Source: Trichechus inunguis
Lineage: Eukaryota
Direction: 5' to 3'
Length of the DNA stretch: 64,000 nucleotides
Assembly: GCA_046562895.1 (NCBI GenBank)
Contig: CM102154.1
Coordinates: forward strand, 28,077,733-28,141,732
Position 1 is the first letter of the stretch; every line of letters begins with the position of its first letter. Positions 1-56,300 of this stretch are shown here, piece by piece. Under the pieces are notes generated by a model that saw nothing but the letters and a program-made list of their open reading frames with translations, was not told where the DNA came from and searched no databases. The position numbers and the translations under genes were made by a program.

Positions 1-3000
1 TCCCAGAAAAAAATAACCCTGACCCTGACGGCTTCACTGAAGAATTCTGCCAAACTTTCAGAGAAGAGTTAACATCACTACTACTAAAGGTATTTCAGAA
101 AATATAAAAATATGGAATACTCCCAAACTCATTCTATGAAGCCAGCATAACCCTGACACCAAAACCAGGTAAAGAAACCACAAAAAAAGAAAATTACAGA
201 CCAACAGCCCTCATGAACATAGACACAAAAATCCTCAGCAAAATTCTAGCCAATAGAATTCAGTAACATACCAAAAAATAGTTCACCATAACCAAGTGGG
301 ATTTACACCAGGTATGCAGGGATGGCTCAACATTAGAAAAACAATCGATGAAATCCATTACACAAACAAAACAAAAGAACTACATGATCTTATCAACTGA
401 TACAGAAAAGGCATTTGACGAAGTCCAACACCCATTCATGATAAAAAGTCTCAGCAAAACAGGAATAGAAGGGAAATTCTTCAATATAATTAAGGGCATT
501 TATACAAAGCCAACAGCCAACATCATTCTAAATGGAAAGAGTTTGAAAGCATTCCCCTTGAGAACAAGAATCATACAAGGATGCCCTTTATCATCACTCT
601 TATTCAACATTGTGCTGGAGGTCCTAGCCAGAACAATTAGGCTAGAAAAAGAAATAAACGGCATCCAAATTGGTAAGAAAGAAGTGAAAGTATCTCTATT
701 TGCAGATGACATGATCTTATACACAGAAAACCCCAAAGAATCCACAAGAAAACTACTGCAACTAATAGAAGATTTCAGCAAAGTAGCAGGATACAAGATA
801 AACATACAAAAATCAGTTAGATTCATCTACACCAACAAAGAGAACTTCCAAGAGGACATCACCAAATCAATACCATTTAAAATAGCCCCCCCAAAAATAA
901 AATACTTAGGAACAAATCTAACCAGAGATGTAAAAGACTTATACAATGAAAACTACAAGACACTACTGCAAGAAACCAAAAGAGACCTGCATAAGTGGAC
1001 TCAACATTGTGAAAATGTCAATTCTACCCAAAGCAATCTAGAGATATAATGCAATGCCAATCCAAATTCCAACAACCTTTTTTACTGAGATGGAGAAACA
1101 AATCACCAACTTCATATGGAAAGGGAAGAGGCCTCAGATAATTAAAGCATTACTGAAGAAGAAGAACAAAGCAGAAGGCCTCACACTTCCTGATTTTAGA
1201 ACCTATTATACCGCCACAGTAGTCAAAACAGCCTGGTATTGGTACAACAGATACATAGATCAATGGGACAGAATTGAGAATCCAGACATAAATTCATGCA
1301 CCTATGAGAAGCTGATATTTGAAAAAGGCCCAAAGTCCTTTAATTGGGGAAAAGACCGTCTCTTTAACAAATGGTGCCAGCATAACTGGATATCCATCTG
1401 CAAAAAATAAAACAAGACCCATACCCCACACCATGCATAAAAACTAACTCAGAATGGAACAAAGACCTAAATATAAAAACTAAAACAATAAAGATCATGG
1501 AAGAAAAAATAGGGACAACGCAAAGAGCCCTAATACATGGCATGAACAGAATACAAAACATTACTAACAACGCACAAACACCAGAAGAGAAACTAGATAA
1601 CTGGGAGCTCCTAAAAATCAAACACTTATGCTCATCAAAAGACTTCACCAAAAGAGTAAAAAGACAACCTACAGACTGGGAAAAGATTTTTGGCTATGAC
1701 ATATCAGATCAGGGTCTAATCTCTAAAATCTACAAGATACTGCAAAACCTCAACAACAAAAAGACAAATAACCCACTTAAAAAATGGGCAAAGGATATGA
1801 ACAGGCACTTCACAAAAGAAGACATGCAGGCAGCTAACAGATATGTGAGGAAATGCTCATGATCATTAGCCATTAGAGAAATGCAAATCAAAACTACAAT
1901 GAGATACCATCTCACCCCAACAAGGCTAGCATTAATCCAAAAAACACAAATTAATAAATGCTGGAGAGGTTGTGGAGAGACTGGAACACTTATACACTAC
2001 TGGTGGGAATGTAAATTGGTACAACCACTTTGGAAATCGACTTGGCGCTTCCTCAAAAGGCTAGAAATAGAAGTACCATACGATGTAGCAATCCCGCTCC
2101 TTGGAATATATCCTTGAGAAATAAGAGCCATCACATGAACACATACATGCACACCCATGTTCACTGCAGCACTGCTCACAATAGCAAAAAGATGGAAACA
2201 ACCTAGGTGCCCATCAATGGACAAATGGATAACAAATTATGGTTTATTCAAACAATGCAATACTATGCAACGATAAAGAACAATGATGAATTTGTGAAAC
2301 ATCTCATAACATGGAGGAATCTGGAAGGCATTATGCTGAGTGAAATGAGTCAGTCACAGAAGGACAAATATTGTATGCATTCTATTATAAGAACTCAAGA
2401 AAAAGTTTAAACACAGAAGAAAACATTCTTTGATGGTTACGAGGGTGGGGAGGGAGGAAGGGGGTACTAACTAGATACTAGACGAGAATTATCTTAGGTG
2501 AAAGGAAGGACAACATACACTACAGGGGAAGTCAGCACAACTGGACTAAACCAAAAGCTAAGAAATTTCTTGAATACAACCAAACACTTCGAGGGACAGA
2601 GTAGCAGGGGTGGGGGTCTGGTGACTATGGTTTCAGAGGACATCTAGGTCAATTGGCATAACAAAGTTTATTAAGAAAATATTCTGCATCTCACTTTGGT
2701 GAGTGGCATCTGGGGTCTTAAAAGGTAGCAAGCGGTCATCTAAGATGCATCAATGGTCCCTGCCTACCTCGAGCAAAGCAGAATGAAGAACACCAAAGAC
2801 CTAAGGAAAATATTAGCCCAAGAGACAGAAAGTCCACATAAACCAGAAATTTCATCAGCCTTAGACCAGAAAAACTAGATGGTGCCCAGCTACCACCAAT
2901 GACCGCCCTGACAGGGAACACAACAGAGAGTCCCTGACGGAGCAGGAGAAAAGTGTGGTGCGTAACTCAAATTCACATAAAAAGACCAGACTTAATGGTT

Positions 3001-3400
3001 TGACTAAGACTGGAGGAACCCCAGAAGACATGGCCCCCAGACTGTTAACCCAGAACTAAAACCATTCCCAAAGCCAACTCTTCAGACAAAGATTAGTCTG
3101 GACTATCAGATATAAAATGATACTTGTGAGGAGTATGCCTCTTAGTTCCAGCAGATACATGAGACTAAATGGGCAGCTCCTGTCCAGAGACAAGATGAGA
3201 AAACAGAAAGGGACAGGAGCTGGTTGAATGGATACGGAAAATCTGGGGTGGAAAGGACGAGTGTGCTATCACAGTACAGAGAGAGCAACTAGGGTCACAT
3301 AACAATGTGTGTATAAATTTTTGTTACGAGAAACAAACGAGCTGTAAACTTTCACTTAAAGCACAGTTTAAATAAATAAGTAAATACGTAAAGTATAAAA
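1..3400 (+). mobile_element. L1 (LINE-1) copy A. 5'-truncated at the window edge. Holds the ORF2 reverse-transcriptase and C-terminal part plus the 3'UTR with an A-rich tail. Degenerate, with multiple stops and frameshifts
   Basis: ORFs 348-1049, 1054-1410, 1497-1862, 1881-2117 and 2207-2410 translate to L1 ORF2 motifs ([58 protein letters not shown]). The 3'UTR ending '..gtaaactttcacttaaagcac..aaataaataag' matches the other L1 3' ends in the window. Confidence 0.9.
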
Positions 3401-3869
3401 ATTTTGTAAATGGTATTTTTAAGTCATTTCCTCTGCTAGACTATAAGAACGCTTCACCTTTTTGTTTCTTTTTTTTACTCCCTACAACACATGGCACATA
3501 TAATAGATGCTCAGTATTTGTTGAATGACACCTGAGACAATCTCACTAACTAGACCTTATATCTTAACTCAAAGCTCTCCAGCTGCCTAAACATATCCAA
3601 GCAGGACTGAGAACTTCTCCACTTCAACTTTCAAGATCGTGCAAATACAAAGGGGCAGAAGAATTTCAAGGTCGCTATGAGTTGGAATTGACTCAACAGC
3701 AATGGCTTTGTATCTTAAATAAAAAGTGTAGCTTGTCAAATTTCATCTCCAGATAAAGGAATCCACAAAGCACCAGGCTCAGGTAGAAAACTGGCCATGC
3801 AAGAATCTGTAAAGGCCTCTAATCAAGACTATTAGACATCGCCTATACAATACTAGAGGTAATGTGCTC

Positions 3870-4030
3870 AGCAGCTAACAAAGAGGTTAGTGGTACAAGT
3901 ACACCCACAGGTGGCTTGGAAGAAAGACCTGACGATCTACTTTTAAAAACTCAGTCACTGAAAATCTTATGGAACAGAATTCTACTCAGACATGCATGGG
4001 GTCGATATGAGTCAGAATCAACAGGACAGG
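3870..4030 (+). mobile_element. Divergent AfroSINE-like copy lying directly 5' of L1 B. A second tail fragment lies at 3655-3715
   Basis: '..aaagacctgacgatctac..cttatggaacagaattctactcag..ggggtcgatatgagtcagaatcaac' parallels the AfroSINE core '..gatctgcttccgtaaagattacagcc..ctatggggcagttctactctgtcctatagggtcgctatgagtcggaatcgac'. Confidence 0.5.
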
Positions 4031-4482
4031 AGGCGGGCCAAGATGGCAGAATAGCCAGGCGCCCTGTGTCGTCCCTCAAAGAGCTGAAAAAACAAGTGAA
4101 TTGAACATAGATGACAACCCTAAGCATCAAAGACGAAGCTGAAGAATCAGACTGCGCAACAGGTGGAAGGAAAGACAATTCAAAACAACGGAAATGGAAA
4201 ATTATGGATCGCCAGCATACTGTTAGCCGAACTTGCACAGTGTGGGCATACTGAGGCAAGCAGCAGCATCCCAAGCCGAAACCCATCCCGCCTGGTGCAG
4301 CTAAGCAGCAGCAACTCTGCACACATCTTCAGAGTCAAACAGGAGTGATACCAGACCTGCAAAAGTGCGTGCACCCAACCCACCATGAAAACCCCAGCAC
4401 CCCCCTCTGCCAAAGCTCCATGGGCCAAGGAGCACTCCTTCCCTCTCACCCATCTCCCTCCCCACTTTGACACCAGTCCAGT

Positions 4483-5455
4483 GGCATTCAACACTGCCAC
4501 ACCCCGTACGCCAGAACTCACCCCAGTCTGGAGGCATCCACCCCTTCACCCAGCCACTGGCACATGGGGTCCCTAAGCTTGCAGTGCCCTCCACCCCCTC
4601 CAATCACCAGCATCAGCACTTTGCTGGCCGAGCCAGAACAGCACATCTACATTGGGATAAGGCATGCAGACGTCCCAGCTGAAGAGCATTTTCACCTGCA
4701 GCAGGCAAGTGGGAGCCGCAGATCTGTGGCATTCAACACCACACCGCCCCCTATGTCAGTAGGTGTGGCCTGGTCCAAGGCGCCTGCCCCTTTGCCCACC
4801 CACTGGCGCAGGGGGTCCACGGACTTACAGCACCCTCCACCCCCTCTGATGACCCACACTAGCGCCTGGCTGGCCAAGCCGGTACAGCACATCCACACTG
4901 GGACAAGGTGGGAAGTGTTCCCAGCTAAAGCCCACTCAGAGCAGGCAAGAGGTAGCTTCAGACCTGTGACATTCAACACTGCCCTGCCGCCTAAGCCAGT
5001 AGATGTCTGCCTGGTCAGAGGCACCCGCCCCTTCACCTAAGCACTGGCAGAGGGGGTCCACGGACTTACAGAGCCCTCCATCCCCTGTGAACGGCCGCAC
5101 CAGCACCTTGCTGGTCAAACCAGTACAGCACGTCCACATTGGGACAGGGCAGGCAGTCTTCCCAGCTAAAGCCCACTTCACGTGCAACAGTCAAGCGGGA
5201 GCTGCAAACCTGTGACATTTTATACCACCCCGCCCCCTAAGCCAGTAGCTCTCAGCTCAGTTCAAGGCACTGGCCTCTTTGCAGAGCCACTGGCACAGAG
5301 GGTCCACAGAGTTGAAGTACCTTCCACCCCCTCCAATCACTCACATCAGCGCCTTGCTGGTCAAGCCACCACAGCACAGCCATATTGACAAGGTTGGCAG
5401 GGTTCCCAGCTGAAGACTACCTCAACTGCAGCAGCCCAACAGGAGCTGCAGACCT
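4483..5455 (+). repeat. Tandem array of four monomers of about 243 bp (starts 4483, 4726, 4966, 5213), plus partial units at 4385-4482 and 5456-5500, inside the L1 B 5'UTR
   Basis: Each unit begins 'tg[ga]cattcaaca..' and contains '..cactggc[ag]ca..gggtccac[ga]gacttacag..ccctccacccc..cagcac..ccaca[ct]tgggaca..cagctgaag..gcagcaggcaag..gagc[ct]gcaga[tc]ctg'. Periods are 243/240/247/243 bp. The proline-rich ORFs 4385-5388 on both strands are periodic artefacts of this array. Confidence 0.85.
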
Positions 5456-8400
5456 GTGAAATTGACCACGACTCCGCCTCCTAAGAAGGGAGCTCGACCA
5501 CCGATGCCTGGGACCTGAGGGCCAGAGGTACCGCCCACTCCATCCAGCCATCAACAACAGGGGCAGGAGGATTAGTGGTACCTCCTAATCCCTCCAGCCA
5601 ATGGCACCGGTCACCCAAGGACTGGCTGCACAACCCCCCATGAAATACTCCAGCAGAGAGGCATGACCTCCAACCGGGTGCCCATGGGAAGCCAAAAGCC
5701 CACTGCCTCGCACCCTGTATCGCCCTACACTCCAGCCAGAGACTTGTGCCTGCCTCAAACACCCCCACACAGCCCTGTCCACCCAGGACTGTAGGTGAGT
5801 CTGCACCACAACCCAGTGACCAATAACCTGGGAACCTTCACCCCAACCATCTGGCAAGCAGCAGAACCCAATGACCAGGGAAAACACCCCCTGCACCTAC
5901 AGCCAGGTGACCAGCATGACAGATACATCACCCCACCAAAAATGCCACCTAAATCCTCAGAAGCCTCATAAGAAGAGTGAAAAGGGTCCCATGTTCACAC
6001 ACATAGTAGCTGCTCCACTCCCCCTGAACAGGAGGTGAGAGCTTCAATGTAGCCAGATTTGCAGCCAGAGTGGCACATGTGCCCAGCCTTTTCGTATATA
6101 TAAAAACAAAAAAACAAAAATTCAGGATGCAGTAAACAAACATATAATAAATAAACATAATAACTTCTTGCTGCCTCGGAGACAACAGTCAACATCAAAT
6201 CACATAAAGAAGTAGGACAAGATGGCTCCAGCAAGTAACCAAAACAAAGAACCAGAAAACCTTCCAGAGGAAGATAAGGCAATGAAACTACCTGATAAAG
6301 AATTCAAAACACTGACATATAGAGTTGTCCAAGAGATCTAGAAAGAGATCAGGGAAAACACAGACAAAACCAAGGAAAACACAGACAAAACCAAGGAAAA
6401 CACAGAGGAACAGAAGAATTCAGGAAAACAACAGAACAAAATGACAGAATAAATAGGCTACTAGAAACCATACAAAAACAGCAACTAGAAATTCAAAAGG
6501 TTAACAATAAAATTTCAGAATTAGACAACTCAAAAGAAGGACAAAGAAGCAGAACTGAGACAATGGAAGACAGCATTAATGAGATTGAAGACAAATCTCT
6601 TAACATCAATTTATTTGAGGAAAAAATCACAAAAAAGAATGAAAAAAATTAAGAAAAGCTAAGAATTATTTAGAACATTATCAAGAGGAAAAACCTATGT
6701 GTGACCGGAGTTCAGAACAGGAGGGGATAATAGAAAACAGAGAGAGTACTGTTGACGATTTGCTGGCAGAAAACTTCCCTAATATCATAAAAGACAAGAA
6801 GATATCCATCCGAAAAGCTCAACAAACCTCATACAGGACAGACCCAGAAGAAAGTCACCAAGACATATCCATAATGAAACTTACCAAAACCAAAGACAAA
6901 AAAGAATCCTGAGTGCAGCTAGGGAAAAATGAAAAGTCACCTACAAAGGAGAACCAATAAAACAAAGCTCTGACTACTCAGCAGAAACCATGCAGACAAG
7001 AAGGCAATGGGATGACATATGTAAAGCCCAGAAAAAAAAAAAAAAAACTGAGAGCCAAGAACTATATATCCAGCAAAACTGTCTCTCAAATACCATGGCA
7101 AAATCAGGATACTTCCAGATAAACAGAAATTAAGGGAATATGTAAAAACCAGACCAAAATTACAAAAAATATTAAACAGAGTCCTCCAGTTAGAGAACCA
7201 ACAACATCAGAAAATAATACAAGACTAGGACACAGGACAGATCAACCAGATACCAACCCAGACAGGGAATTCTCAAAAACAAAACAAATCAAAAGACTGA
7301 AAATAGGGAACCAGAGACATTGATATGTAAATGACAGCAACATCAAAATGAAAAAGAGGGAAAGAACGGTGTAGTTACACAACTTCCATATGGAAAACAA
7401 GTCAAGGTGATATTAAGAAATAAAACTTAGGTAAATAAAGGTAAATTTCATGGTAACCACAAAGAAGTTAACAAACCTATACATCAAAATAAAAAAGAAG
7501 ACAAACATAAAGACTCAGTAAACACAAAATCAATAATAATGAGAGAAATGCAAAGAAAATCCACAAACAGAACTCAGCAAAGAAAATTAAGCAGAACACA
7601 GAAACCATGAACACTACAAAAACAACAAAATGACAGCAGTAAACTCATACTTCTTAATAATTATACTGAATATAAATGGCTGAAATGCACCAGTAAAGAG
7701 ATAGAAAGTGGCAGAATGGTTAAAGAAACATGATCCATCTATATGCTGTCTACAAGAGACACACCTTAGACACAAACACATAAACACACTAAAACTCCAA
7801 AGATAAAAAAATACATCAAGTAAACAATAACCAAAAAACAGTAGGTGTGGAAATGTTAATCTCCGATAAAACAGATTTTAAAGCAAAATCCACCACAAAG
7901 GATAAGGAAGGACACCACATAATGATTAAAAGGTCAATATATCACAAAAATATAATCTTAATAAATATATACACACCCAATGACAGGGCTCAAAAATACA
8001 TAAATTCTAACAGCCTTGAAAAGAGAAATAGACAGCTCCACAATAATAGTAGAAGACTTCAACATACCACTTTCAGTGAAGGACAGAACATCTAGAAATA
8101 AAATAAATAAAGATACAGAAGACCTAAATGCCACAATCAACCAACTCGACCTCATATACATATACAAAACATACCATACAACAGCAGCAAAGTATACATT
8201 CTTTTCCAATGCACATGGAACATTATCCAGAATAGACCATATTTTAGGCCACAAAGCAAGCCTCAACAAAACCCAAAGCATCAAAATAATACAAAGCATC
8301 TTTTCTGATCATAATGCCATAAAAGTAGAAATTAATAATAGAAACAGCAAGGGAAAAAAATCAAATACATGGAAATTAAATAACACTTTGCTTAAAAACA

Positions 8401-9742
8401 ACTGGGTAACAGAAGAAATCAAGGATGGAATAAAAAAATTCATAGAATCTAATGTGAATGAAAATACATATTACCAAAACCTTTTGGACACAGCAAAGCA
8501 GTGCTTAGAGATCAATTTATAGCAATAAACATACACATCAAAAAAATAAGAACGGGTCAAAATCAAAACATTACTCTACAACTTGAACAAATACAAAAAG
8601 AGAGCAGCAAAAGAAGCCCAGAGGCACCAGAAGAAAGGAAATAACAAAGAGTAGAGTAGAAATAAATGAAATAGAGAACAGAAAAACAATTGAAAGAATC
8701 AACAAGACCAAAAGTTGGTTCTTTGAAAAGATCAACAGAATCGACAAACCACTGGCCAAACTGACAAAAAAAAAGCAGGAGAGGAAGCAAATAACCCAAA
8801 TACAAAATGAGATGGGTGATATCATAACAGACCCAACTGAAATTAAAAAGATCACAACAGAATACTATGAAACATTGTACTCCAACAAATTTGAGAACCT
8901 AGAAGAAACAAATTTCTAGAAACGAACTACCTACCTAAACTAACAGAAACTGAGGTAGACAAACTAAACAGACCCATAACGAAAGATGAGATTGAAGAGT
9001 TAACAAAAAAACTCCCAACAAAAAGAGCCCTGGCCCAGACGGCTTCACTGGAGAATTCTACCGAACTTACAGAGAAGCGCTCACACCAGTACTACTCAAA
9101 ATATTTCAGAGCACAGAAAAGGAAGAAATGCTCCCAAATTCATTCTGTGAAGCCACCATAACCCTGATACCAAAGCTAGGCAAAGAAATGCACACACAAG
9201 AAAGAAAACTACACACCATGAATACAGACACAAAAATTCTCAGCAAAATTCTAGCCGACAGACTTCAACAGCATATCAAAAAAATAATACAACATGACCA
9301 AGTGGGATTCCTACCAGGTATGCAAGGATGAAAATAAATCAACATAATCCACCACATAAATAAAACAAAAGAATCACATGATCATCTCAATCGACACAGA
9401 AAGGGCATGGGATAAAGTCAAACACCCATTCCTTTTAAAAACTCTCAGCAAAATAGGAATAGAAAGGAAATTCCTCAACATAATAAAGGGCATTCATACA
9501 AAACCAACAGCTAACATCATTCTCAACAGAGAGAGACTGAAATTATTCGTCTTGAGAACAGGAATCAGACAAGGATGCCCTTTATCACCCACTTATTCAA
9601 CATCATGTTAGAAGTCCTAGTAAGAGCAACAAGGCAAGAAAAAGAAATAAAGGGCATCCAAATTGGTAGGGAATAGGTAAAACCATCACTCTTCACAAAT
9701 GATATGATCCTATACATAGAAAATCCCAAAGAATCCACAAGA

Positions 9743-10300
9743 GGGGTAACAGACCAAACTACCACAACCTCCACCAGACTGAGCCCTGAACAACTACATG
9801 GTGCCTGGTTACCACCGCCGACTGCTCTGGCAGGGAACGAACACAATAGAGAGTTTCGGACAGAGCTTAAGAAAAATGTAGAACAAAATTCAAATTCACA
9901 AAAAAGACCAGGCCTGCTGATCTGACAGAGACTGGAGAAACCCCAAGAGCATGGTCCCCGGATAACCTTTTAACTCAGTACTGAAATCACTCCTGAAGTT
10001 CACCCTTTACTCAAAGATTAGACAGGTCTAAAGGGCCAACAGTAACATACATGAGGGTTGTGCTTCATAGTTCAATCATGGATACGAGACTAATGGGCAA
10101 ACTAGCCCAAAAGCGAAGGCAAGAAGCGACAGGAAACTGGACGAATGGAAACAGGGAACCTGGGGTAGAGAAGGGGAGAATGTTGACACATTGCGGGGTC
10201 GGCAACCAATGTCACAAAACAATTGTGTATTAACTGTTAAATGAGAAACTAATTTGCTCTGTAAAGTTTCACCTAAATCACTCTAAAAAAAAATAAAAAA
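9743..10300 (+). mobile_element. Nested 5'-truncated L1 3'UTR fragment (about 560 bp, ending in poly(A)) inserted into the RT domain of L1 B ORF2. Flanked by a 15-bp target-site duplication 'aaagaatccacaaga' (9728-9742 and 10299-10313)
   Basis: The ORF2 sequence ..[11 protein letters not shown] | [16 protein letters not shown].. is continuous once the insert is removed. The insert matches L1 3'UTR blocks ('..ccagctaccaccaatgacc..', '..gttgacacattgcggggtcggcaaccaatgtcacaaaacaat..gtaaagtttcacctaaatcactctaaaaaaaaataaaaaaag'). Confidence 0.85.
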
Positions 10301-13100
10301 AGAATCCACAAGAAAGCTACTGCAACTAATAGAAGATGTCAGCAAAGTAGCAGGATACAACCTTAACATATAAAAATCAGTTGGATTTCTCTACACCAAC
10401 AAAGAACTTCGAAAAGGAAATCAGCAAATTAATATCATTTACAGCAGCCCCCCAAAAGACAAAATACTTACGGATAAATCTAACCAGGGACGTAAAAGAC
10501 CTATACAAAGGTAACTACAAAACACTGCTGCAAGAAACCAAGAGACCTACATAAATGGAAAAACATACCATGCTCATGGATAGGAAGACTCAACATCGTG
10601 AAAATGTCAATACTACCCAAACAATCTACAGATACAATGCAATCCTGATCCAAATGCCACCAGTATTCTTTAACAAGATGGAGAAATAAATCATCAACTT
10701 TATATGGAAATTGAAGACGCCCCAGATAAGTAAAGCATTACTGAAGAAGAACAAATTGGGAAGCCTCACACTGCTTGTTTTAGAACCTATTATACAGCCA
10801 CAGTAGTCAAAATAGCCTGGTACTGGTACAACAACAGACACACAGACCAATGGAACAGAACTGAGAACCCAGATGTAAATCCATCCATGAGCAGCTGATA
10901 TTTGACAAAGGGTGAAAGTCTGTTCGGAAAAGACAGTCTCTTTAACAAATGTTGCTGACATAACTAGATATCCATCTGTAAAAAAATGAAACAATATCCA
11001 CACTTCACACCATACACAAAAACTAACTCAAAATGTTATCAGAGCCCTAAATATAAAACCTAAAACCAAAAAGATCATGTAGGAAAATATAGGGACAGTG
11101 CTAGGGACCCTGAGACATGGCATAAATACAATACAAACCATAACTAACAATCCACAAACACCAGAAGAGAAATTAGATAACTGGGATGTCCTAAAAATTA
11201 GACACTTATGCTTATCAAAAGACTTCATCAAAAGAGTAAAAGGAGAACCTATAGACTGGAGAAAAAAATTTTGGCTACAACATATCGGATAAGGGTCTAA
11301 TCTCTAAAATCTACAAAATACTTCAACATCTCAACAACAAAAAGACAAATAATGTCTCCAGACATTCGGGCAGCTAACAAACACATGAGGAAATGCTCAC
11401 AATCATTAGCCATTAGAGCAATGCAAATCAAAACTACAATGAGATACCATCTCTCCCCAACAATACTGGCACTAATCAAAAAAAAAAAAAACAAACTTTA
11501 GAGAGGTTGCAGGGAGATTGGAACTCTTATGCACTACTACCGCGAATGTAAAATGGTACAACCACTATGGAAAACAATATGGCACCTCCTTAAAAAGCTA
11601 GAAATAGAAATACCATACAATCCAGCAATCCCACTCCTAGTAATATATCCTAGAGAAATAAGAGGTATCATATGAATAGATGTATGTACATCTATGTTCG
11701 TTGCAGAATTATTCACAATAGCAAAAAGATGGAAACAACCTAAATGTCCATCAACAGATGAATGGATAATCAAATTATGGTACATACACACAATGGAATA
11801 CTACGCAACGATAAAAAACAATAATGAATCCGCGAAACATCTCACAACATGGATGAATCTGGAGGGCATTATGTTGAGTGAAATAAGTCAATCACAAAAG
11901 GAAAATTTTTTATGAGACTACTACTACAAGAACTCAAGAAAAGGTTTACACACAGATGGGTGGGGAGGGCTGGGGAGAGGAAATCACTAACTAGATAGTA
12001 GACAAGTGTCAACTTTGGTGAAGGGAAAGACAATACACAATATAAGGCAAGTCAGCAAGACTTGACGAAGGCAAAGTCATAGAAGTTTCCTAGACACATC
12101 CAAACACCCTGAGGGACTGAGTTACTAGGGCTGAGGGCTGGAGACCACAGTCTCAGGAGACATCTGGGTCAACTGGCATAACAAAGTTCATAAAGAAAAT
12201 GTTCTACATCCTACTTCGTTTGGTGAATAGCATCTGGGATCTTAAAAGCTTGCAAGTAGCCATCTAAGCCACATCTATGGGTCCCATCCCATCCAGAGGA
12301 AAGGAGAATGAACAAAACCAAAGACATGAGGGAAGTATTAGTCCAAAGGACTAAAGGACCACATGAACCAGAGCCTCCACCAGCCTGAGCCCAGAAGAAC
12401 TAGATGTTGCCCAGCTACCACCACCTCCTGCTCTGACAGGGATCACAACAGAGTCCCGGACTGAGTGGGAGAAAAACACGGAATAAAATTCAAATTCACA
12501 AAAAAGACTAGACTTACTTGTCTGACAGAGACTGGAAGAACCCCCAAGACTATGGCCCCCGGACACTCTGCTAACTCAGAACTGAAACCACTCCCAAAAC
12601 CCACTTTTCAAACAAAGATTAGACAGCCCTTTAAAACAAACAATAACACATGTGAAGAACGTGCTTCTTAGTTCAATCAAATATATGAGATCAAATGTGC
12701 AACTCCTGTCCCAAACCAAGACAAGGCAGGAAGGGACAGGAACTGGACAGACACAGGGAATCCGAGTTAGAAATGGGGAGAGTGTTGTCACATTGTGAGG
12801 ACTGCAACCAATGTCACAAAACAATATGTGTATAAATTTTTGAATGAGAAACTAACTTGAGCCATAAACTTTCACCTACTAAGCACAATAAAATTAAAAA
12901 AAAAAAAAAAAAAAAGAATCAACTTGACAGCAACTGGTTCAGCTGGTTAGACAATACCTGCTCATGGGACAGCCACAGAAGGGAAGAAGAATTCACTAAT
13001 CTGTGTCCACTAACAATGTCCTCAGCTGTCAGTGAAAGGCCAGGAAGTGCAGGCAATTAGTTCAGAGGGGCATAAAAAAGGAAAGGCAAGAGACACTCAC

Positions 13101-24450: not shown

Positions 24451-26061
24451 TAAGACACATAGTATCTCTGGAAAGAGACACAATAAGCTGGCAATAGTAT
24501 TTGCTTCCAGAGAGGTGAGTGGCTGTGGGGACATAGGTAGGAAGGAGATTTTTCACTGTATACCTTTTTTGCACCATTTGAATTTGTAATGTGAATTATT
24601 AAAGTATTCAATAAATACTTTTTTAAAAGTAGCAGGTAATATTCCTGACAGAGTTTCTCTTTACTATTTTTTAATTGTAGCTAGTATGTGCTTCAAACTG
24701 ACTTATGTGGACCTAATAAAGGAAGAAAAGGTTGAAGGTAGAAATCATGAATTTATGTAAAATAATTTCCTCAGATCAGTTTCTAACAAAATTTCAAACT
24801 CCACAGGGAAGGAAAATACTAATATGTAAAATGTACAAAATCTGTCTGATTAGCTATAAAATAGGGAGGAATGTTTTTAAAACTTTTGAGTTAAGCCAAG
24901 ATTTTTCCCTGACATTATTTAACCCTGGGGTACAGTAAAAAAAAAAAAAATTTAAGAAAATTTTATACTCTGTACTCAGAAAGAAATATATATACTTGCT
25001 TGCTCTTCAATTATCTAAAGCAGGGATATTCACTTGCCTTTCTACAGTGACTAATGATAAAATATCCTCAAATAATTTTGGTATGATTTTATTACCTAAA
25101 GAAACAATGAGACTGGCATTTAAGGTAATTTCATTGTAATTCCCTCCCATACCAATAAGAATCAATTGAAGAATTTAAGATTTAGAAAAGACCATAAGGG
25201 TAATCTAATTCAACCTCTCATTTCAGAGATATAGAAACTAAAGCCCTGAAAGTTTAAATCCAAACTCACATAACCAATATATGGAAAAACCATAAATAGA
25301 ACCCAGATATTCTGCCTCCCCACCCAGTGCGCTTTCAAATCTTGCTTCTAGTGGGACATAAAATTCACTAAGAGTACCCTTCAAATTTCTTTCTTGGCTC
25401 TACATTTTGAATATGTTATCTGTGATAGCAGTCAGAAATGCTTACTATTTAATAAAGTAAAACAAGGAACAAATCTTTAAAAATTATTTTAATTAGTACA
25501 GTATCTTGAGATCAATCACATATTAGTAAATTTTCCGCTGTAGAAGTGTATTCCTAAATAACTAAACACAATGTTACAGCTGACAAAAAGGTAAAGAAGT
25601 AATTTTATTTTAAATGCCAAAAAATCAACTCTGCAAAATAATAACTTTATCCATCTGAATTATTTTTAAATAGAAATAGAGACTGGACATATATGCATCA
25701 AACTATACTCATATGAGCATACTTTCAAACAAGTTAATACAAGGGCAAATACATAAACATATACAAATAAATGAAATCAAAAATACACAAATAACAAGCA
25801 GACTGCTTGTGAAAACTCAATAGTTCACAATGAAATTGAGATGATCAAAACCATACTCATACTGTAAATAATAAAAAACGACAAAAGAAACCAGACTCTA
25901 AAGCCACTCCGCACTACCAATGAGTTTCTCGTAAGCTGAAAAGGTGAAGACAATTTCAAAGACTTACTAGCACAGGGAAGTTGGCAACTTCGGTCTAGAA
26001 TAAAGATTATTTGCTAAATGAAATCACCAAACATGAACATAGAAACATTCTGTAAAGTGAG

Positions 26062-26264
26062 CTAAACTCTCTTTACTTTGAAGGCTCTACTAGAGACTTG
26101 CTGATGCTCTAATTCACGACTTGGAGAGGCAAAACTGAAAAAGCTGTTGCTGGGTTCAGGTGCTGTTGGAGAACCCACAAAAAATGGTCTGAATTGAAAA
26201 TCTCCATCTCCTCCACCCCGATTTCGAACTGGTGTATTGTCCAAAGGAAACTTGGAGTTGTTTC
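26062..26264 (-). CDS. CCNB1IP1: CCNB1IP1 (HEI10) last coding exon: (G)NNSKFPLDNTPVRNRGGGDGDFQFRPFFVGSPTAPEPSNSFFSFASPSRELEHQQVSSRAFKVKRV*. Stop TAG at 26062-26064
   Basis: Acceptor ttttttccacag|GAAACA (phase 2). The C-terminus matches human HEI10. The 3'UTR continues below 26062. Confidence 0.85.
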
Positions 26265-26799
26265 CTGTGGAAAAAAAAAATAAGGGAAAAACTTAAGCAT
26301 CTATTTCCTTACTGATCTTTAGGAACAAAAAAACGTAAGTCATTCAATGAACATTATTAACAGAACTCGACTCCTATGAGAGTTACAGGTAAAATAAAGA
26401 CCTAATGTTGTTTAAAGAAAAAGACTATGATCACCCCTATCTTTACCCTCAACTACAGTATATACTGTACCTTCTTCTGTGATGCAGTGTGATCCAGCGA
26501 CAGCCATGGCCTCATCACCAAAAGTAATGACACACAGAGATATGTTTTTAGTAGAGCTAGAATTTACAGTATCATAATTTTACTCATTTGTTAACTATGT
26601 AACCTATTTCAGGGGAAGCATCTTATATATTTATATATACACATACAATATATGCATATATATAATTTAAATATATATAAAAGCTTTTCTTCCAAGTTCG
26701 TTAAAAATAATTTTTAAAAATATTGCAATAAACACTCTAGAAAATATATGACAACTATGAAAAACTGGCATATTCATGGTTCAAGATCAATTCAAAGGC

Positions 26800-28860
26800 T
26801 TAAGAGAAAGCAAACATACTTGGGGAAAAGACAGTCTCTAATAAATGGTACTGGCATAACTGGATATTCATTTGCAAAAAACTGAAACAAGACCCATACC
26901 TCACACCATGCACAAAAACTAACTCCAAATGGATCAAAGACCTACATATAAAATCTAAAATGATAAAGATCAACGGAATAAAAAATTGGGACAAAGCTAG
27001 GAGCCCTAATACATGACCTAAACAGAATATGAACCATAAGTAACAATGCACAAGCACCAGAAGAGAGACTAGATAACTGGAAGCTCCTAAAAATCAAACA
27101 CGTATGCTCATCAAAAGACTTCACCAAAAGAGGAAAAAGACAACTTACAGACTGGGAAAAAAATTTTGGCTACGACAAATCTGATCAGCCTCTTATCTCT
27201 AAACTCTACAAGATACTGCAAAATCTCAACAGCAAAAAGACAAATAACCCAATTAAAAAATGGGCAAAGGATGTAAACAGGCACTTCACCAAAGAAGACA
27301 TTCAGGCAGCTAACAGATACATGAAGAAATGATCTTTAGCCATTAGAGAAATGCAAATCAAAACTACAATAAGATACCATCTCACCCCAACAAGGCTAGC
27401 ATTAATCCAAAAAACACAAAATAATAAATGCTGGAGAGGTTGTGGAGAGACTGGAACACTTATACACTGTTGGTGGGAATGTAAAATGATACAACCACTT
27501 TGGAAATCGATTTGGCGCTTCCTTAAAAAGTTTGAAATAGAAGTACTACATGATCTAGCAATCTCACTCCTTGGAATATATCCTAGAGAAATAAGAGTCG
27601 TCACACGAATAGATATATGTACGCCCATGTTCATTGTAGCACTGTTCGTGATAGCAAAAAGATGCAAACAACCCAGGTGCCCAACAACAGATGAATGGAT
27701 AAAAAAATTATGGTATATTCACACAGTGGAATATCACGCAACGATAAAGAACAACGATGAATCCGTGAAACATCTTATAACATGGACGAATCTGGAGGGC
27801 ATTATGCTGAGTGAATTTAGTCAGTCACAGAAGGGCAAATATTGTATAAGACCACTATTATAAGAACTCAAGAAAAGGTTTAAACACAGAAGAAAACATT
27901 CTTTGATGATTACAAGGGTGGGGAGGGAGGGTGAGAGTTATTCACTAACTAGATAGTAGACAAGAATTATCTTAGGTGAAGGGAAGGACAGAACACAGTA
28001 CAGGGGAAGTCAGCACAACTGGACTAAACCAAAGCTAAGAAGTTTCCTGAATACAATCAAACACTTTGAGAGACAGAGTAGCAGGGGAAGGAGTCTGGGG
28101 ACCATGCTTTCAGGGGACATCTAGGTCAACTGGCATAACAAAGCTTATTAAGAAAATGCTCTGCATCCTACTTTGGTGAATGCCACCTGGGGTCTTACAA
28201 GCTTGCAAGCGGCCATCTAAGATGCATCAATTTGTCCCAACCACTTGGAGTAAAGGCGAATGAAGAACACCAAAGACACAAGGAAAGTAGTAGCCCAAGA
28301 GACAGAAAGGGCCATATAAACCAGAGACTTCATCAGCCTGAGACCAGAAGAACTAGATAGTGCCCAGCTACCACCAATGACCACCCTGAATGGGAACACA
28401 ACAGAGAGTCCCTCATGGAGCAGGAGAAAGGTGGGGTGCAGAACTCAAATTCTAGTAAGAAGACCAGACTTAATGGTCTGACTGAGACTGGAGGAACCCC
28501 GGAAAGCATGGCCCCTGGATTCTCTATCAGCCCAGAACTAAAACAATTCCCGAGGCCAACTCTTCAGACAGGGATTAGACTGGACTGTGGGACATAAAGT
28601 GATACTCATGAGGAGTGTGCCTTTTAGCTCAGGTAGATACAAGAGACCAAAGAGGCAGCTTCTGTCCAGAGGTGACATGGGAAGGCAGAGAAGGTTAGGA
28701 GCTGGTTGAACGGACATGGGGAATCAGAGGTGGAAAGGAGAAGTGTGTTGTCGCAGTATGGGGAGAGCAATCAGGGTTATATAACAATGTGTGTATAAAT
28801 TTTTATATGGGAGACTAACTTGAAATGTAAACTTCATTTAAACTACAATAAAGAAAAAAG
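26800..28860 (+). mobile_element. L1 copy C, 5'-truncated (end of ORF2 plus the full 3'UTR), in CCNB1IP1 intron 2
   Basis: ORF2 tail WGKDSL..NKWxWHNWIFICKK ... [59 protein letters not shown] ... [14 protein letters not shown], then the 3'UTR blocks ending '..gtaaacttcatttaaactacaataaagaaaaaag'. Confidence 0.9.
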
Positions 28861-29572
28861 AAAATGTTCTGCATCCCACTTTGGTGAGTGGCGTCTGGGG
28901 TCTGAAAAGGTAGCGAGAGGCCATCTAAGATGCATCAATTGGTCCCAATCACCTGGAGTAAAGGAGAATGAAGAACACCAAAGACACAAGGAAAGTAGTA
29001 GCCCAAGAGACAGAAAGGGTCACATAAACCAGAGACTGCATCATCTTGAGACCAGAAGAACTAGATGGTGCCCAGCTACCACCAATGACCACCTTGACAG
29101 GGAACACAACACGGAGAAGGAGAAAGGTGGGGTGTAGAACTCAAATTCTAGTAAAAAGACCAGACTTAATTGTCTGACTGAGACTGGAGGAACCCTGGAA
29201 AGCATGGCTCCCGGACTCTCTGTCAATTCAGAACTAAGACAATTCCCAAGGCCAACTCTTCAGACAAAGATTGGACTAGACTGTGGGACATAAAATGATA
29301 CCTGGCTTCTTAGCTCAAGTTGATACATGAGACTAAATGGGTAGATTCTGTCTGGAGGTGAGATGAGAAGACAGAGAGGGTTAGAAGCTGGTTGAATGGA
29401 CATGGGAAATCAGGAATGGAAAGGAGGAGTGTGCTGTCACAGTATAGGGAGAGCAATTAGGGTCCCATAACAATGTATGTATAAATTTTTGTATGAAAAA
29501 CTAACTTAAAATGTAAACTTTCACTTAAACTACAACAATAAACAAATAATAATAAAAAAAGTCTAAAAAAAA
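28861..29572 (+). mobile_element. L1 copy D: a second about-710-bp L1 3'UTR-only fragment sitting directly in the tail of copy C, forming a tandem 3'UTR doublet
   Basis: 28861-29572 realigns block by block to 28160-28860 ('aaaatg[tc]tctgcatcc[ct]actttggtga..ccatctaagatgcatcaatt..ccagctaccaccaatgaccacc..gtaaact..'), ending in its own A-rich tail. Confidence 0.8.
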
Positions 29573-30037
29573 GAGTAGCATAAAGAAGAGAAGTCAAGAA
29601 GAGATAGAACATTCATTGTATCTGCCAAGGCAATTAACAGACAGAAAAGGGCCACTATCATCCTAGATCCCAGAGGGCAGAAATCCTACCTGGATAAGCT
29701 TTATATCTTCATTGACTAAGATTGTCCCCAACAGCCTGTCACATGAAACATGTTTGATAAATATTTGATGAGTGAACAAAGGAATGAAGAGCAAAAGAAC
29801 AAACCAACCTTATAACCGACAATAACTTTACAACTGTGTAGTCAGTATTGCTGTGCAAAAGAAACTGAAACATGACCTTCTAGGAAGACAGCAAATAGTG
29901 TGGGCTCTGTAACCATGACCAAATTACTTAGCCTTTCTGTGTCTCATTTGGTGATCTTTAAAGCAGGGATAATAATAATACTTACCTCATAGAGTTTTGA
30001 AAATTACATAAATACATGTAAAATATTCATAACAATC

Positions 30038-30828: not shown

Positions 30829-31160
30829 CTATTCCAAGACAGAAAAGATTTTTAAGGTAATGATTATAAAGTTATATACCGTAAAACTTTATATAATCAC
30901 AAAAGAAAAAGATGCTTACATTGGGATGTTACTACCTTAACATTTAGAACCAGGTTAAGAAGCATTGAGGATATACAGTAAGATGATTACCATAGAAAAT
31001 AACTGTATATAAGTAAAAAATAAGTATATAAGAAAAATTTCTGGAGCAATACTAACCACTATCCTTATTCCACCAAAAAAACAAGTGATTTCACTTGTCT
31101 TATTTTAACAAGTGACATGTATTCCAAAGGTTCTTAAGAAATATAATTCCACTTTTCAGA

Positions 31161-34046
31161 GAGTTTGAAAGCATTCCCCTTGAGAACGGGAACACACAAG
31201 GATGCCCTTTATCATCACGCTTATTCAACATTGTGCTGGAGGTCCTAGCCAGAGCAATTAGGCTAGAAAAAGAAATAAAGGGCATTCAAATTGGTAAGGA
31301 AGAAGTGAAAGTATCTCTATTTGCAGATGGTATGATCTTATACACAGAAAACCCCAAAGAATCCACAAGAAAACTACTGCAACTAGTAGAAGATTTCAGC
31401 AAAGTATCAGGATACCAGATAAACACACAAAAATCAGTTGGATTCATCTACACCAACAAAGAGAACTTCCAAGAGGAGATCACCAAATCAATACCATTTA
31501 CAATAGCCCCCAAGTAGATAAAATACTCAGGAATAAATCTAACCAGAGATGTAAAAGATCTGCACAAGGAAAACTACAAGACACTACTGCAAGAAGCCAA
31601 AAGACACCTGCATAAGTGGAAAAACATACCTTGTTTATGGATAGGAAGACTCAACATTGTGAAAATGTCAATTCTATCCAAAGCAATATACAGATACAAT
31701 GCAATTCCGATCCAAATTCCAACAGCATTTTTTAATGATACGGAGAAATGAATCATCAACTTCATATGGAAAGGGAAGAGGCCTTGGATAAGTATAAAGC
31801 ATTAGTCAAGAAGAAGAACAAAATGGGAGACCTCACACTACCTGATTTTAGAACTTATTATACTGCCACGGTAGTCAAAACAGCCTGGTACTGCTACAAC
31901 AAGAGAAACATAGACCAACGGAACAGAATTGAGAATCCAGAGATAAATTCATCCACCTATAAGGAGCTGATATTTAACAAAGGCCCAAAGTCTGTTAAAT
32001 GGGGAAAAGACAGTCTCTTTAACAAATGGTGCTGGCATAACTGGATATCCATCTGCAAAAAAATGAAACAATACCCCTACCTCACACCATGCATAAAAAC
32101 TAACTCAGAATGGAACAAAGACCTAAATATAAAAACTAAAACAATAAAGATCATGGAAGAAAAAATAGGGACAACGCAAAGAGCCCTAATACATGGCATG
32201 AACAGAATACAAAACATTATTAACAATGCACAAATACCAGAAGAGAAACTAGATAAGTGGGAGCTCCTAAAAATCAAACACTTATGCTTATCAAAAGACT
32301 TTAACAAAAGAGTAAAACGACGACCTACAGAATGGGAAAAAATTTTTGGCCACAACATATCCGATCAGTTTCTAATCTCTAAACTCTACAAGATACTGCA
32401 AAATCTCAACGACAAAAAGACAAATAACCCAATTAAAAATGGGCAAAGGATGTGAACAGGCACTTCACCAAAGAAGACATTCAGGCGGCTAACAGATACA
32501 TGAAGAAATGCTCTCGATCATTAGCCATTAGAGAAATGCAAATCAAAACTACAATAAGATACCATCTCCTCCCAACAAGGCTAGCATTAATCCAAAAACA
32601 CAAAATAATAAATACTGGAGAGGATGTGGAGAGACTGGAACACTTACATGTTGTTGGTGGGAATGTAAAATGGTACAACCACTTTGGAAATCAATTTGGT
32701 GCTTCCTTAAAAAGCTAGAAATAGAAGTATCATACGATTCAGCAATCCCACTCTTTGGAATATAACCTAGAGAAATAAGAGCCATCACACGGATAGATAT
32801 ATGCACACCCATGTTCACTGCAGCACTGTTCACGATAGCAAAAAGACGGAAACAAGCTAGGTGCCCATCAACAGACGAACGGATAAATTACGGTATACTC
32901 GCACAATGGAATACTACACAAAGATAAAGAACAATGATGAATCCATGAAACACCTTATAACATGGATGAATCTAGAAGGCATTATGATGAATGAATTTAG
33001 TCAGTCACAAAAGGACAAATATTGTATGAGACGACTATTATAAGAAGTCAAGAAAAGGTTTAAACACAGAAGAAAACATTCTTTGATGGTTACGAGGGTA
33101 GGGAGGGTGGGAGAGGGGTATTCACTAACTAGACAGTAGACAAGAATGATCTTAGGTGAGGGAAGGACAGAACACAGTACAGGGGAAGTCAGCACAACCA
33201 GACTAAACCAAAGCTGAGATGTTTACTGAATACCACCAAACACTTCAAGGGACAGAGTAAGCAGGGGTTGGGGTCTGGGAACCATGGTTTCAGGGGACAT
33301 CTAAGTCAACTGGCATAACAAAGCTTATTAAGAAAATGTTCTGCATCTCACTTTGGTGAGTGGCATCTGGGGTCTGAAAAGGTAGCAAGCGGCCATCTAA
33401 GATGCATCAATTACTCCCAACCACCTGGAGCAAAGGAGAATGAAGAACACCAAAGACACAAGGAAAATATTAGCCCAAGAGACAGAAAGGGCCACGTAAA
33501 CCAGAGACTTCATCAGCCTGAGACCAGAAGAACTAGATGGTACCTGGCTACCACCAATGACTGCCCTGGTGGGGAACACAACAGAGAGTCCCTGAGGGAG
33601 CAGGAGAAAAGTGGTGTGCAGAACTCAAATTCTAGTAAAAAGATCAGAATGAGACTGGACGGACCCTGGAAGGCATGGCCCCCGAACTCTCTGTTAGCCT
33701 AAATCTGGAACCATTCCCGAGGCCAACTCTTCAGACAAAGACTAGACTGGACTATGGGACATAGAATGATGCTCGTGAGGAGTGTGCTTCTTGGCTCAGG
33801 TAGATACATGAGACTAAGTGGGCGGCTCCTGTCTGGAGGCGAGATGGGAGGGCAGAGAGGATCAGGACCTGGTTGAATGGGCACGGGAAATCTGGGGTGG
33901 AAAGGAGGAGTATGCCGTCACAGCATAGGGAGGGAGAGCAACTGGGGTCACATAACAATGCGTGTATAAATTTTTGTATGAGAGACTAGCTTGAATTGTA
34001 CACTTTCACTTAAAGCACAACAATAAAAAAATAAAATAAAAAAACA
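31161..34046 (+). mobile_element. L1 copy E, 5'-truncated (RT domain to the 3' end plus 3'UTR/poly(A)), antisense to CCNB1IP1 in its intron between coding exons 1 and 2. Flanked by a 24-25 bp TSD 'aagaaatataat[tc]cca[ct]ttttca[ga]' (31137-31160 and 34047-34071)
   Basis: ORFs 31233-31517, 31748-32455 and 32452-32718 give L1 ORF2 RT and C-terminal motifs. The 3'UTR ends '..cactttcacttaaagcacaacaataaaaaaataaaataaaaaaacaaag'. Direct repeats sit on both flanks. Confidence 0.9.
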
Positions 34047-53300: not shown

Positions 53301-56300
53301 GTTAAAGGCGGGTTCCCTCCTCCTTTACCTTAAAACCAAAAATCAAACCCATTGCGGTTGAACGGATTCCGACTCAGCGACCCTGTAGGACAGAGTAGAG
53401 CTGTTACTTTAAAACGTGTTAAAATAACGCAACCCCTTCCATCACCTACCTGTCTTTTCATGCACAGGTTTTAGATTGAACTTTTTAAATCCAATTTCTT
53501 TCTGGGTTAATGTACTTAGCGTCATAAGCAAACACAGGCTAATTCAAGTTGTTTAGTATGTTCCTGTTTAGACGGGCCTACTGCATTTCATTCCAAGCAA
53601 TTTTCCTCCCCTTAGGATAACTTCCTGTCCTTTGTGACCTCAACTTTGGTAATTTATGCAAGGTAACAGGATCTATTATAAACAGTCTAGATCCCCTCAA
53701 GTTAGAATGTGTCTTCTGGGCAGTAGTCGAGCTAACTGGCTTAGTGGATAAAAGCTGGGTGGTTAAGGCTTTGAAATAAAATTTAACTAATTTTGAATTC
53801 GAGCCCTGCTATTGTTGTTAGGTGCTGTCAAGTTGGTTCCGACTCATAGCGACCTTATAGGACAGAGTAGAACTGCCCCATAGAGTTTCCAAGGAGTGGC
53901 TGGTGGATTCCAACTGCCAGCCTTTCGGTTAGCAACCGAGCTCTTAATCACCGCGCCACCAAGGATCCATGGTGTCCCTATGAACAACCGAATGAAACAC
54001 TGCCCTATCCTGTGCCATCTTTACATTTGTTGCTATGTTTGAGCTCATTGTTGTAGCCACTGTGTCAATCCATTTCGTTGAGGGTCTTCCTCTTTTTCAC
54101 TGACCCTCTACTTTACCAAGTATGATGTCCTTCTCGAGGGACTGGTCCCTCCTGATAACATGTCCAAAGTAAGCAAGACAAAGTAATTTACTTGCACAGA
54201 TCTAAATCTCAGCATCCTCAACTATAAAAAGAAAAAATCATGACATCGATCTATGAAAACCAAACCAAAACCAAACCTGTTGCCGTCCAGTCGATTCCGA
54301 CACATAGCAACCCTAAAGGAGAGAGTAGAACTGCTCCAGAGGGTTTCCAAGGAGTGGTTGACCTTTTGGTTAGCAGTCCTAGCTCTTAATCACTGCATCA
54401 CCAGGGCTCCATTCTCATGTATGGAGGTGGTGAAAAAGTAACTGCTTGCATGAATTTTCTTTTGCTATTCTGTTTGTCTACATATTATACAATTCTTTCT
54501 GGATACAAGCAAAGCAATAGAAATCAGTTTTTGCTCCTAAATTCTGTTTGGTTACAGACCTATGCTCACCAATAATTTTTTTATTTCCAACAGTAGCAGA
54601 GATTACATTGTATATATTCTTCTTCTCCTATGAGAGAGGTGCCAGCAGATCATTTGGAATCCCGGAAGGATGAGTACAGGGCTCTCTGGAATCACTGAGG
54701 GAGAACTACTTTAGTAAAGAGCTTTGAATACCAATATAAAACAAGACCAAATAAAACAAAAAAACCCGTTGCCATCCAGTTGATAGCAACCCTATAGGAC
54801 AGAGTAGAACTGCCCCATAGGGTTTCCAAAGAGCAGCTGGTTGATTCAAACTGCCAATCTTTTGGTTAGCAACCTGAGCTCTTAGCCACTGTACCACCAG
54901 GGCTCCGTATACCAATACAGTATTACATTGAAGCATAGATACACAGACCCTATGTGTTTTAACGTTGAAAAGGAAAAGCTGCCCAACTTCTAAAATGGAT
55001 TTCTGGAAAGGGGAATGAGGAAAAGATCTAGGTCCTGGATCCATTGAGTTACCAATGTTGAATCTGCTGACTCCTCAACTCCTATTAGGTGAAATTAAAA
55101 ATGTGGAGCCCTGATATTTTTGGCCACGCTTAGCACAAAACAAGGGGGATTATCTGTCTTCAAAGAACCTTGTTGACCTATGCAATGATGAACTTGAGGG
55201 AGATAACCATTTTAACACCAAGGAATAGTGTAGCTACACTTACTAGTATAGCAGTAGAGGACTTATCAGACTCAGCTGGGGTGGATGTGGGAGTCAGGCT
55301 CCTCGCCTAAACCATAGGCCTAAGAACTTTTGGACAATTCAGGGGAAGTGAAAGATACCAGACTTGTCCCTCATAAGACATTGGTAAATAACACCTCCCT
55401 CCATTTTTGTACATTTTCCTGTCCCCAAATTGATGACTTTTAGATCTAGTCTAACTTATCTGTGCCACAATTAAGTCAGATGCAGCCAACTTTGAACTAA
55501 CACTGAAACACATTAACTAATATAATGCAATCCAACTCGTATTGAGCAGCCCTGGTGGTGCAATGGTTAACTGCTTGGCAGCCAATCAAAACGTTGGCGG
55601 TTACCTCGTGATCTGCTCCCAATAAAGATTACAGCCTAGCAAACCCTATGGGGCAGTTCCACTCTGTACTATATGGTTGCTGTGAGTCAGAATCGACTCA
55701 ACAGCACACAACAATAACATTTATTGAGCACTTACATTTTGTCAAATTTATTCCCAAGTACTTGATACGCTTTGATGTTATTATAAATGATATTTTTTCT
55801 AAAAATTTTACTTATAGTTGTTTCAGGCTCTTTTATAAAGATACGGTATATATACAGGTATATATATGTTGTGTGCTGTTGAGTCAATTCGGACTCATAG
55901 AGACCCTATATATGGCACAGTAGAACTGCCCCAAAGGGTTTCTTAGGCTGTATTCTTTACCAGAGCAGATCACCAGATAACTTCCACCCTGTACTTTTGA
56001 TTAGCAGCCAAGCACTTAACTACTGTGCCACCACGGATATATATACATTCGTCTATGCTAAGCTCTCCTGCTAAGTTTAAAAATTTACCCTGTAGTTTCT
56101 TCTGGATTTTTCATATTTATGATGAAATCTCACGCAAAGAATGAGAATTTTGTTCTCCTTTCTTAAGTTTGCATCTTTTGATGAACAAACGTTCTTAATT
56201 TTAATAAAATCAAGTTATCAATATTTTCTCTTGTAGTCAATGAGTTTTGCTTCTTAAGAAAACCTTTCCCTAACCTCATGATCTAAAAGATATTTATCTG

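Follow-up and report, generated by a model that had tools for sequence, protein, structure and literature searches.

A tandem array of ~245-bp units in the 5′ untranslated region of a decayed afrotherian L1 element from Trichechus inunguis

RESULTS

A 64,000-nucleotide stretch of the Trichechus inunguis genome (assembly GCA_046562895.1, contig CM102154.1, positions 28,077,733 to 28,141,732 of the forward strand; hereafter the window) contains a dead L1 element whose 5′ untranslated region (5′UTR) carries about four head-to-tail units of ~245 bp. The array is probably an amplified, CpG-rich 5′UTR segment of an extinct afrotherian L1 family, which the inserted copy would have inherited from its source element and which would most likely have served as a promoter or enhancer. 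The evidence comes from the structure of the array, its position inside a complete L1, the divergence between its units, and a comparison with full-length elephant L1s. All coordinates are positions within the window unless another sequence is named, and the unit labels m1–m4 run 5′ to 3′.

Structure and divergence of the tandem array

Tandem Repeats Finder (TRF) detected one strong array at 4532–5485, with a period of 246, 3.9 copies, 73% matches, 2% indels, and a score of 897. A gap-free repeat finder also placed four in-register copies at spacings of 240–246 nt; the earliest match in this register was at 4474. The head-to-tail array reported in a first-pass annotation of this DNA was thus recovered, and the boundaries that we set from TRF, gap-free repeats, and BLAST differ by 3–5 nt from the unit starts given there. 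The units are as follows:

4478–4722, + strand: monomer 1 (m1), 245 bp
4723–4962, + strand: monomer 2 (m2), 240 bp
4963–5208, + strand: monomer 3 (m3), 246 bp
5209–5452, + strand: monomer 4 (m4), 244 bp
5453–5485, + strand: in-register start of a fifth unit, 33 nt, borderline (array end at 5485 according to TRF)

Four complete and two partial units had been counted previously. The four complete units hold, and the 3′ partial unit is borderline, as 5453–5485 gave a local score of 26 against the unit consensus (shuffle mean 20.2, standard deviation 2.4). The partial unit proposed upstream, at 4385–4482, was rejected because nothing in 4022–4477 scored above shuffles against the unit consensus (20 versus 18.9, standard deviation 2.1). 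The two sequence blocks quoted for the units, 'ccactggc..gggtccac.gacttacag' and ccctccaccccctc, do recur in register across them.

When each unit was searched by BLAST against the 64-kb window, it matched the array alone, with E-values of 1e-22 to 1e-49. These values exclude chance, and the array does not represent a dispersed repeat; on the same result, we rejected any homology between the monomer and AfroSINEs or other sequence in the window. Pairwise identity between units was 69–78%, which is moderate, contrary to the high identity that had been stated. Among the substitutions, 78 were private to one unit and 20 were shared, so the units decayed independently of one another in a nearly star-like manner. 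A higher-order (dimeric) structure of the array was considered and rejected, since the pattern counts (10, 8, and 2) were not significant and partly reflected CpG pairs. The proline-rich open reading frames (ORFs) that run through the array had been described as artefacts, and our searches agree: they matched no Pfam family and had no real homologue among 1.84 billion representatives, in which the 158-aa ORF matched only a spurious IQ-repeat protein.

The array lies inside a structurally complete, coding-dead L1

The array lies inside a complete L1 flanked by target-site duplications (TSDs) and is therefore contiguous with the L1 body; a lack of contiguity had been named as an observation that would speak against the earlier interpretation. 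When the flanks were joined, the empty site gave uninterrupted AfroSINE-like sequence with a gap-free match to another copy of this short interspersed element (SINE) in the window. The L1 is 8,892 bp long, or 8,336 bp without a nested insert, and comprises the following features in addition to the array:

4014–4022, + strand: 5′ TSD AGAATCAAC, within an AfroSINE-like repeat (identical 9-mer at 12915–12923)
4023–12914, + strand: L1, structurally full-length and coding-dead, recognized by its TSDs, poly-A, and Pfam domain order
4023–4477, + strand: 5′UTR leader, with a YY1-type box CAAGATGGC at 4039–4047
5486–6170, + strand: non-repeated 5′UTR tether, 685 bp
6171–7228, + strand: ORF1 remnant, start codon decayed to CTG (LPRRQQS...)
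7229–7632, + strand: ORF1-ORF2 spacer, ~400 bp (approximate boundaries, transferred by BLAST from the gene calls of elephant L1 locus L002)
7633–11950, + strand: ORF2 remnant with endonuclease and reverse transcriptase (approximate end)
9743–10298, + strand: nested L1 3′-end fragment in ORF2, 556 bp, not part of the original element
11951–12914, + strand: 3′UTR, ~0.95 kb, with a terminal poly-A run at 12896–12914
12915–12923, + strand: 3′ TSD AGAATCAAC, 9 bp

The 5′ end of the element, GGAGGCGGGCCAAGATGGCAGA, begins 8 nt past the TSD and aligns with the starts of three elephant L1s; the 'gccaagatggc' motif given previously as the start of the element was located at 4037–4047. Stop-free fragments of the element matched, in order, PF02994 (Transposase_22), PF03372 (Exo_endo_phos, below the curated cut-off), and PF00078 (RVT_1). 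A protein search with the stitched ORF1 remnant returned a single match, the L1 ORF1 protein (ORF1p) of Loxodonta africana at 58% identity, which upholds the assignment to an afrotherian L1, and a tblastn comparison of ORF2 with elephant ORF2 gave 69–74% identity. Published afrotherian L1s have ORF1-ORF2 spacers of 423–719 bp, and the elephant L1 3′UTR is 994 bp (PMC5381506); the ~400-bp spacer and ~0.95-kb 3′UTR found here fit this layout. The element thus has TSDs and poly-A, the ORF1 and ORF2 domains in the expected order, a YY1-box 5′ end, and an afrotherian spacer, 3′UTR, and relatives. The description of the L1 as full-length is correct for this structure but not for its coding capacity, as stops and frameshifts occur throughout ORF1 and ORF2; the copy is dead and roughly 10% decayed.

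Two further features lie within the element. The N-terminal part of ORF1 contains a perfect 21-bp tandem repeat at 6353–6406 (GGAAAACACAGACAAAACCAA; 2.6 copies, 100% match) that encodes QGKHRQN repeats and is a young, post-insertion local expansion. The nested fragment at 9743–10298 is 5′-truncated and shows a 75% match to the end of the main element's own 3′UTR (12367–12936).

The element begins at a unique YY1 leader upstream of the array

The 5′UTR spans 4023–6170 (2,148 bp) and consists of a 455-bp leader, the 1,008-bp array (47%), and a 685-bp tether. The first-pass description of a 5′UTR built from monomers was therefore too broad, since the array occupies 1,008 of 2,148 bp between two non-monomeric segments. 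Mammalian L1s share a conserved 5′ start of the form G(n)..CAAGATGGC, the YY1 box (PMC5381506). The YY1 core (AAGATGGC) occurs only once in the 5′UTR of the window element, at the 5′ end (4039–4047), and a check for YY1 motifs inside the monomer, as had been suggested, found no core in any unit. Two parts of the leader, its first ~140 nt and a block near 4250–4290, can be aligned with the 5′ termini of three elephant L1s that inserted independently. Because these first ~140 nt are common to the three elephant elements and the sole YY1 core lies there, the element and its source RNA start at the leader, upstream of the array, and not inside a unit.

No internal repeats were found in the tether (5486–6170), and only its last ~80 nt are homologous to elephant L1s. 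A weak, non-significant resemblance (~70% over 59 nt) was seen between the conserved leader block at 4254–4312 and the 3′ part of the monomer; the unit might derive from the L1's own 5′UTR rather than from captured DNA.

The array most likely predates the insertion

Unit divergence was compared with the decay of the L1 copy itself. The terminal branch of the main L1 is ~0.027 transversions per site, and units identical at insertion are predicted to show at most 0.063 pairwise transversions per site after correction for base composition. The observed pairwise values were 0.092–0.124 per site, and the Poisson probability of this excess was 0.004 at the mean, 0.0006 at the highest pair, and 0.06 for the closest pair, m2–m3. 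Because the unit transversions exceed what the post-insertion decay of this copy allows, the array is most likely older than the insertion and was derived from the source element. In contrast to these diverged units, the recent local expansion within the same element (the 21-bp repeat) is 100% identical.

The middle of the 5′UTR differs among afrotherian L1s

Full-length L1s for comparison were retrieved by a protein-anchored approach. A search with the Loxodonta L1 ORF1p returned Elephas matches and one match in ENA, and the resulting loci L001–L004 hold three full-length L1s: L001 (Loxodonta), L002 (Elephas), and L003 (Elephas). The monomer was not found in the 5′UTR of any of the three. Two parts are common to all four afrotherian 5′UTRs, including that of the window: the leader, with its first ~140 nt and a AGCCAGCATCCCAG-type block, and the final ~80 nt that precede ORF1. 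The regions in between are mutually unrelated, with only a partial 67% similarity between L001 and L002 in the 3′ part. The shared leader is located at the following positions:

Window: 4023–4290
L001: 8604–8880
L002: 8722–8860
L003: 25297–25500

This pattern suggests that the middle of the afrotherian L1 5′UTR has been serially replaced, and the array would be one such replaced middle region. No repeats were found in the 5′UTRs of L001 and L002. L003 (Elephas maximus CM044029.1), a young, CpG-rich full-length L1 with its 5′ end at ~25297 and the ORF1 ATG at 26407, contains three copies of a G-rich 94-nt motif at 25589–26080, with spacings of 214 and 170 nt, starting ~290 nt from the 5′ end. 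This repeat is probably the published threefold elephant 5′UTR repeat. When the window unit was compared with it on both strands, the similarity did not exceed that of shuffles.

In the 3′ region, the closest match of the main L1 is an old fragment of the same family at the Loxodonta locus (81% identity), followed by the four truncated L1 copies in the window (78–80%) and the young elephant L1s (71%). The main L1 thus belongs to an older family. Wider searches for relatives gave little. JGI metagenome contigs were scanned for exact occurrences of two monomer motifs, and bacterial and archaeal genomes for one, with 0 matches in either, and an alignment search with the ORF2 endonuclease returned only short metagenome contigs of 55–64% identity that are apparently not afrotherian. 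The ENA match, L004 (ERZ18707846, NODE_2706), is a 2.4-kb metagenome contig whose intact L1 ORF1p shares 83% identity with the Loxodonta protein; it is probably host DNA of an afrotherian in a metagenome sample.

Base composition and possible function of the array

The array has a GC content of 59% and a present CpG observed/expected ratio of 0.26. There were 12 instances of a homologous site with TG in one unit and CA in another, compared with 1–6 for control dinucleotide pairs. Such co-occupancy is the signature of independently decayed CpGs and marks the ancestral unit as rich in CpG. Generic GC and CACCC boxes are found repeatedly in the units. The array gave no signal of stable RNA structure (z = -0.8 and -1.2), and no Rfam match or tRNA origin was found for it.

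Human L1 promoter activity is generally described as spread across the internal 5′UTR. Mammalian L1 5′UTRs are CpG-island internal promoters, several of them with tandem motifs (PMC5381506), and the strength of the mouse L1 promoter depends on its monomers (PMC9022269). By analogy with these elements, the array would most likely have been a multimerised promoter/enhancer module behind a YY1 initiator.

Insertion site and neighbouring L1 copies

The L1 split an AfroSINE-like repeat at 3995–4022 / 12924–12950. Repeats of this kind carry a GGTCGCTATGAGTCGGAATCGACTCGACGGCA-type motif, which we take to be the AfroSINE consensus, and two further matches to the motif were found in the window at ≤3 mismatches (0 expected). 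The SINE at the insertion site has a GGTTT-type tail, in agreement with the AFROSINE listing (PMC6007223). The AfroSINE-like repeats with the motif are located as follows:

3670–3710
3995–4022 and 12924–12950, interrupted by the L1
23646–23677, - strand
54281–54312, - strand

The window contains four other L1 copies, all of them 5′-truncated:

1–3379, + strand
26824–29574, + strand
31158–34044, + strand
57257–61769, + strand

These copies are 86–89% identical to one another and so represent a younger family than the main copy. The + strand of the window is rich in A (22,389 A versus 16,294 T). The common orientation of the L1s and this A-richness may reflect an orientation bias, such as that of an intron of a minus-strand gene.

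DISCUSSION

We propose that a ~245-bp segment, originally CpG-rich and C-rich, was tandemly amplified to 4.1 units in the variable middle of the 5′UTR of an extinct, older afrotherian L1 family. The array would already have been present in the source element and would have been transcribed as part of an L1 RNA started at the conserved YY1-box leader 455 bp upstream. This RNA would then have been copied into the site by target-primed reverse transcription, and the array would have decayed in place. In the active family, it would most likely have formed the bulk of a CpG-island internal RNA polymerase II promoter/enhancer; repetition of the unit would have increased the number of binding sites, among them GC and CACCC boxes, and the leader would have set where initiation took place.

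Several observations weigh against this proposal. The rate argument presumes similar transversion rates in the GC-rich array and the 3′ region, is based on ~240 sites per pair, and could be inflated by undetected decayed CpGs. A second copy of this 5′UTR type was not retrieved from the 64-kb window, ~81 kb of elephant loci, or two metagenome scans, and the unit is absent from all three other full-length afrotherian L1s examined (L001–L003). In the units themselves, no promoter motif was found beyond the generic GC and CACCC boxes, and a looser rule for restoring CpGs (22 CpG per unit) performed no better than control dinucleotide rules and was not relied on.

Some of these observations could also be explained by a local, VNTR-like (variable number tandem repeat) duplication after insertion, which would be unique to this copy and would have no bearing on L1 biology. 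The failure to retrieve another array, the almost star-like divergence, and an m2–m3 distance compatible with identity at insertion all agree with such a duplication, and the 21-bp repeat demonstrates that local expansion does occur in this element. However, five of the six unit pairs carry about twice the transversions allowed by the post-insertion branch, which would place the expansion before the insertion. Tandem units are also a recurrent, published phenomenon in L1 5′UTRs (PMC5381506), of which the L003 repeat is an example, and we regard a post-insertion duplication as quite unlikely. If the array was instead inherited, it might have been a passenger, namely a captured or slippage-generated minisatellite without a role in transcription, with promoter function residing in the leader or elsewhere. 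The start of the element at a conserved YY1 leader, 455 bp before the array begins, the lack of YY1 cores in the units, and the lack of an RNA structure signal or an Rfam or tRNA match are all compatible with a passenger, as is the fact that the middle regions with which other afrotherian L1s function are very different and in part non-repeated. Nevertheless, the units were ancestrally rich in CpG and account for 47% of the 5′UTR. Promoter activity in human L1 is generally described as distributed over the internal 5′UTR. Mouse L1 activity, moreover, scales with monomers (PMC9022269). A passenger seems unlikely to us.

A murine-type organization, in which each unit is an autonomous promoter with its own start and copy number varies as transcripts start in different monomers, is suggested by the head-to-tail ~245-bp units, which are near the ~200 bp of mouse monomers, and by the non-repeated tether that follows them. 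This organization is very improbable, since the inserted copy starts not within a unit but at a unique leader common to non-repeated afrotherian L1s, and no unit has a YY1 core. An inherited promoter/enhancer module thus remains the explanation that we favour.

Comparison with known L1 5′UTRs shows which aspects of the array are familiar. Like mouse A/Tf/Gf elements (and the tandem 5′UTR of rat), the window L1 has CpG-rich head-to-tail units of a few hundred bp followed by a tether before ORF1. Mouse L1s start within a monomer, and a YY1 site is present in Tf monomers. The mouse arrays form the 5′ terminus and their monomers carry initiation signals, and mouse and rat elements do not begin with a YY1 site (PMC5381506); promoter activity and copy-number variation of mouse monomers are documented (PMC9022269). 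Unlike in mouse, a unique leader of 455 bp, which contains the sole YY1 core, precedes the array in the window. The murine architecture is not reproduced in this L1, because the element begins at the leader and no monomer has a YY1 core.

Tandem 5′UTRs were treated as essentially murine in the first-pass annotation, a view that is outdated, as duplicated motifs are published for elephant, hyrax, horse, and opossum L1s (PMC5381506, PMC9022269). Boissinot and Sookdeo (2016) described tandemly duplicated 5′UTR motifs of ~70–100 bp in several mammals: rat and hyrax L1s have them duplicated twice, those of horse, elephant, and opossum three times, and mouse L1s many times (PMC5381506). Such motifs have been called monomeric structures (PMC9022269). 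Like the L1s of elephant, hyrax, horse, and opossum, the window element has an internal tandem duplication in a GC-rich, CpG-rich 5′UTR with a conserved G-rich/CAAGATGGC start. It also shares with the elephant and hyrax elements an afrotherian host and the position of the array downstream of the leader, as in L003 (455 versus ~290 nt). The window array differs from the published motifs in its unit length (240–246 bp versus ~70–100 bp, with 170–214-bp spacing in L003) and copy number (4.1 versus 2–3), and from the L003 repeat in having a C-rich rather than G-rich sense strand and in belonging to an older family. The four afrotherian 5′UTRs compared here also fit serial 5′UTR replacement, which PMC5381506 and PMC9022269 credit to Khan et al. 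(2006) for mammalian L1 lineages; this describes how L1s evolve in general and is not a structural type.

No description of the window array was found in the searchable literature, and Dfam or Repbase consensus sequences may well include its units. The general phenomenon of tandem motifs in the afrotherian L1 5′UTR is already published, and the window provides a second, unrelated, larger array in an older family. The gain is therefore incremental, also given that the main copy is long dead.

Tandem-unit 5′UTRs may have arisen at least two times from unrelated sequence in afrotherian L1s, as C-rich 4 x 245 bp units in the window element and as G-rich 3 x ~170–214 bp units in L003, at a comparable position downstream of the same YY1 leader. 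Such a history would suggest that, outside rodents, selection has repeatedly favoured multimerised CpG-island promoter modules while the leader was kept as the initiator; we put this forward tentatively, as a possibility that falls a little short of being probable. If the array is a feature of its family, afrotherian L1s would have changed their 5′UTR several times, settling at least twice on a repeated CpG-rich middle behind the YY1 leader. The unit consensus would then be suited to reporter tests, and the family would provide a non-rodent case for asking what drives the multimerisation of L1 promoters, be it promoter strength, evasion of repressors like the KRAB zinc finger proteins (KZFPs), or buffering against 5′ truncation.

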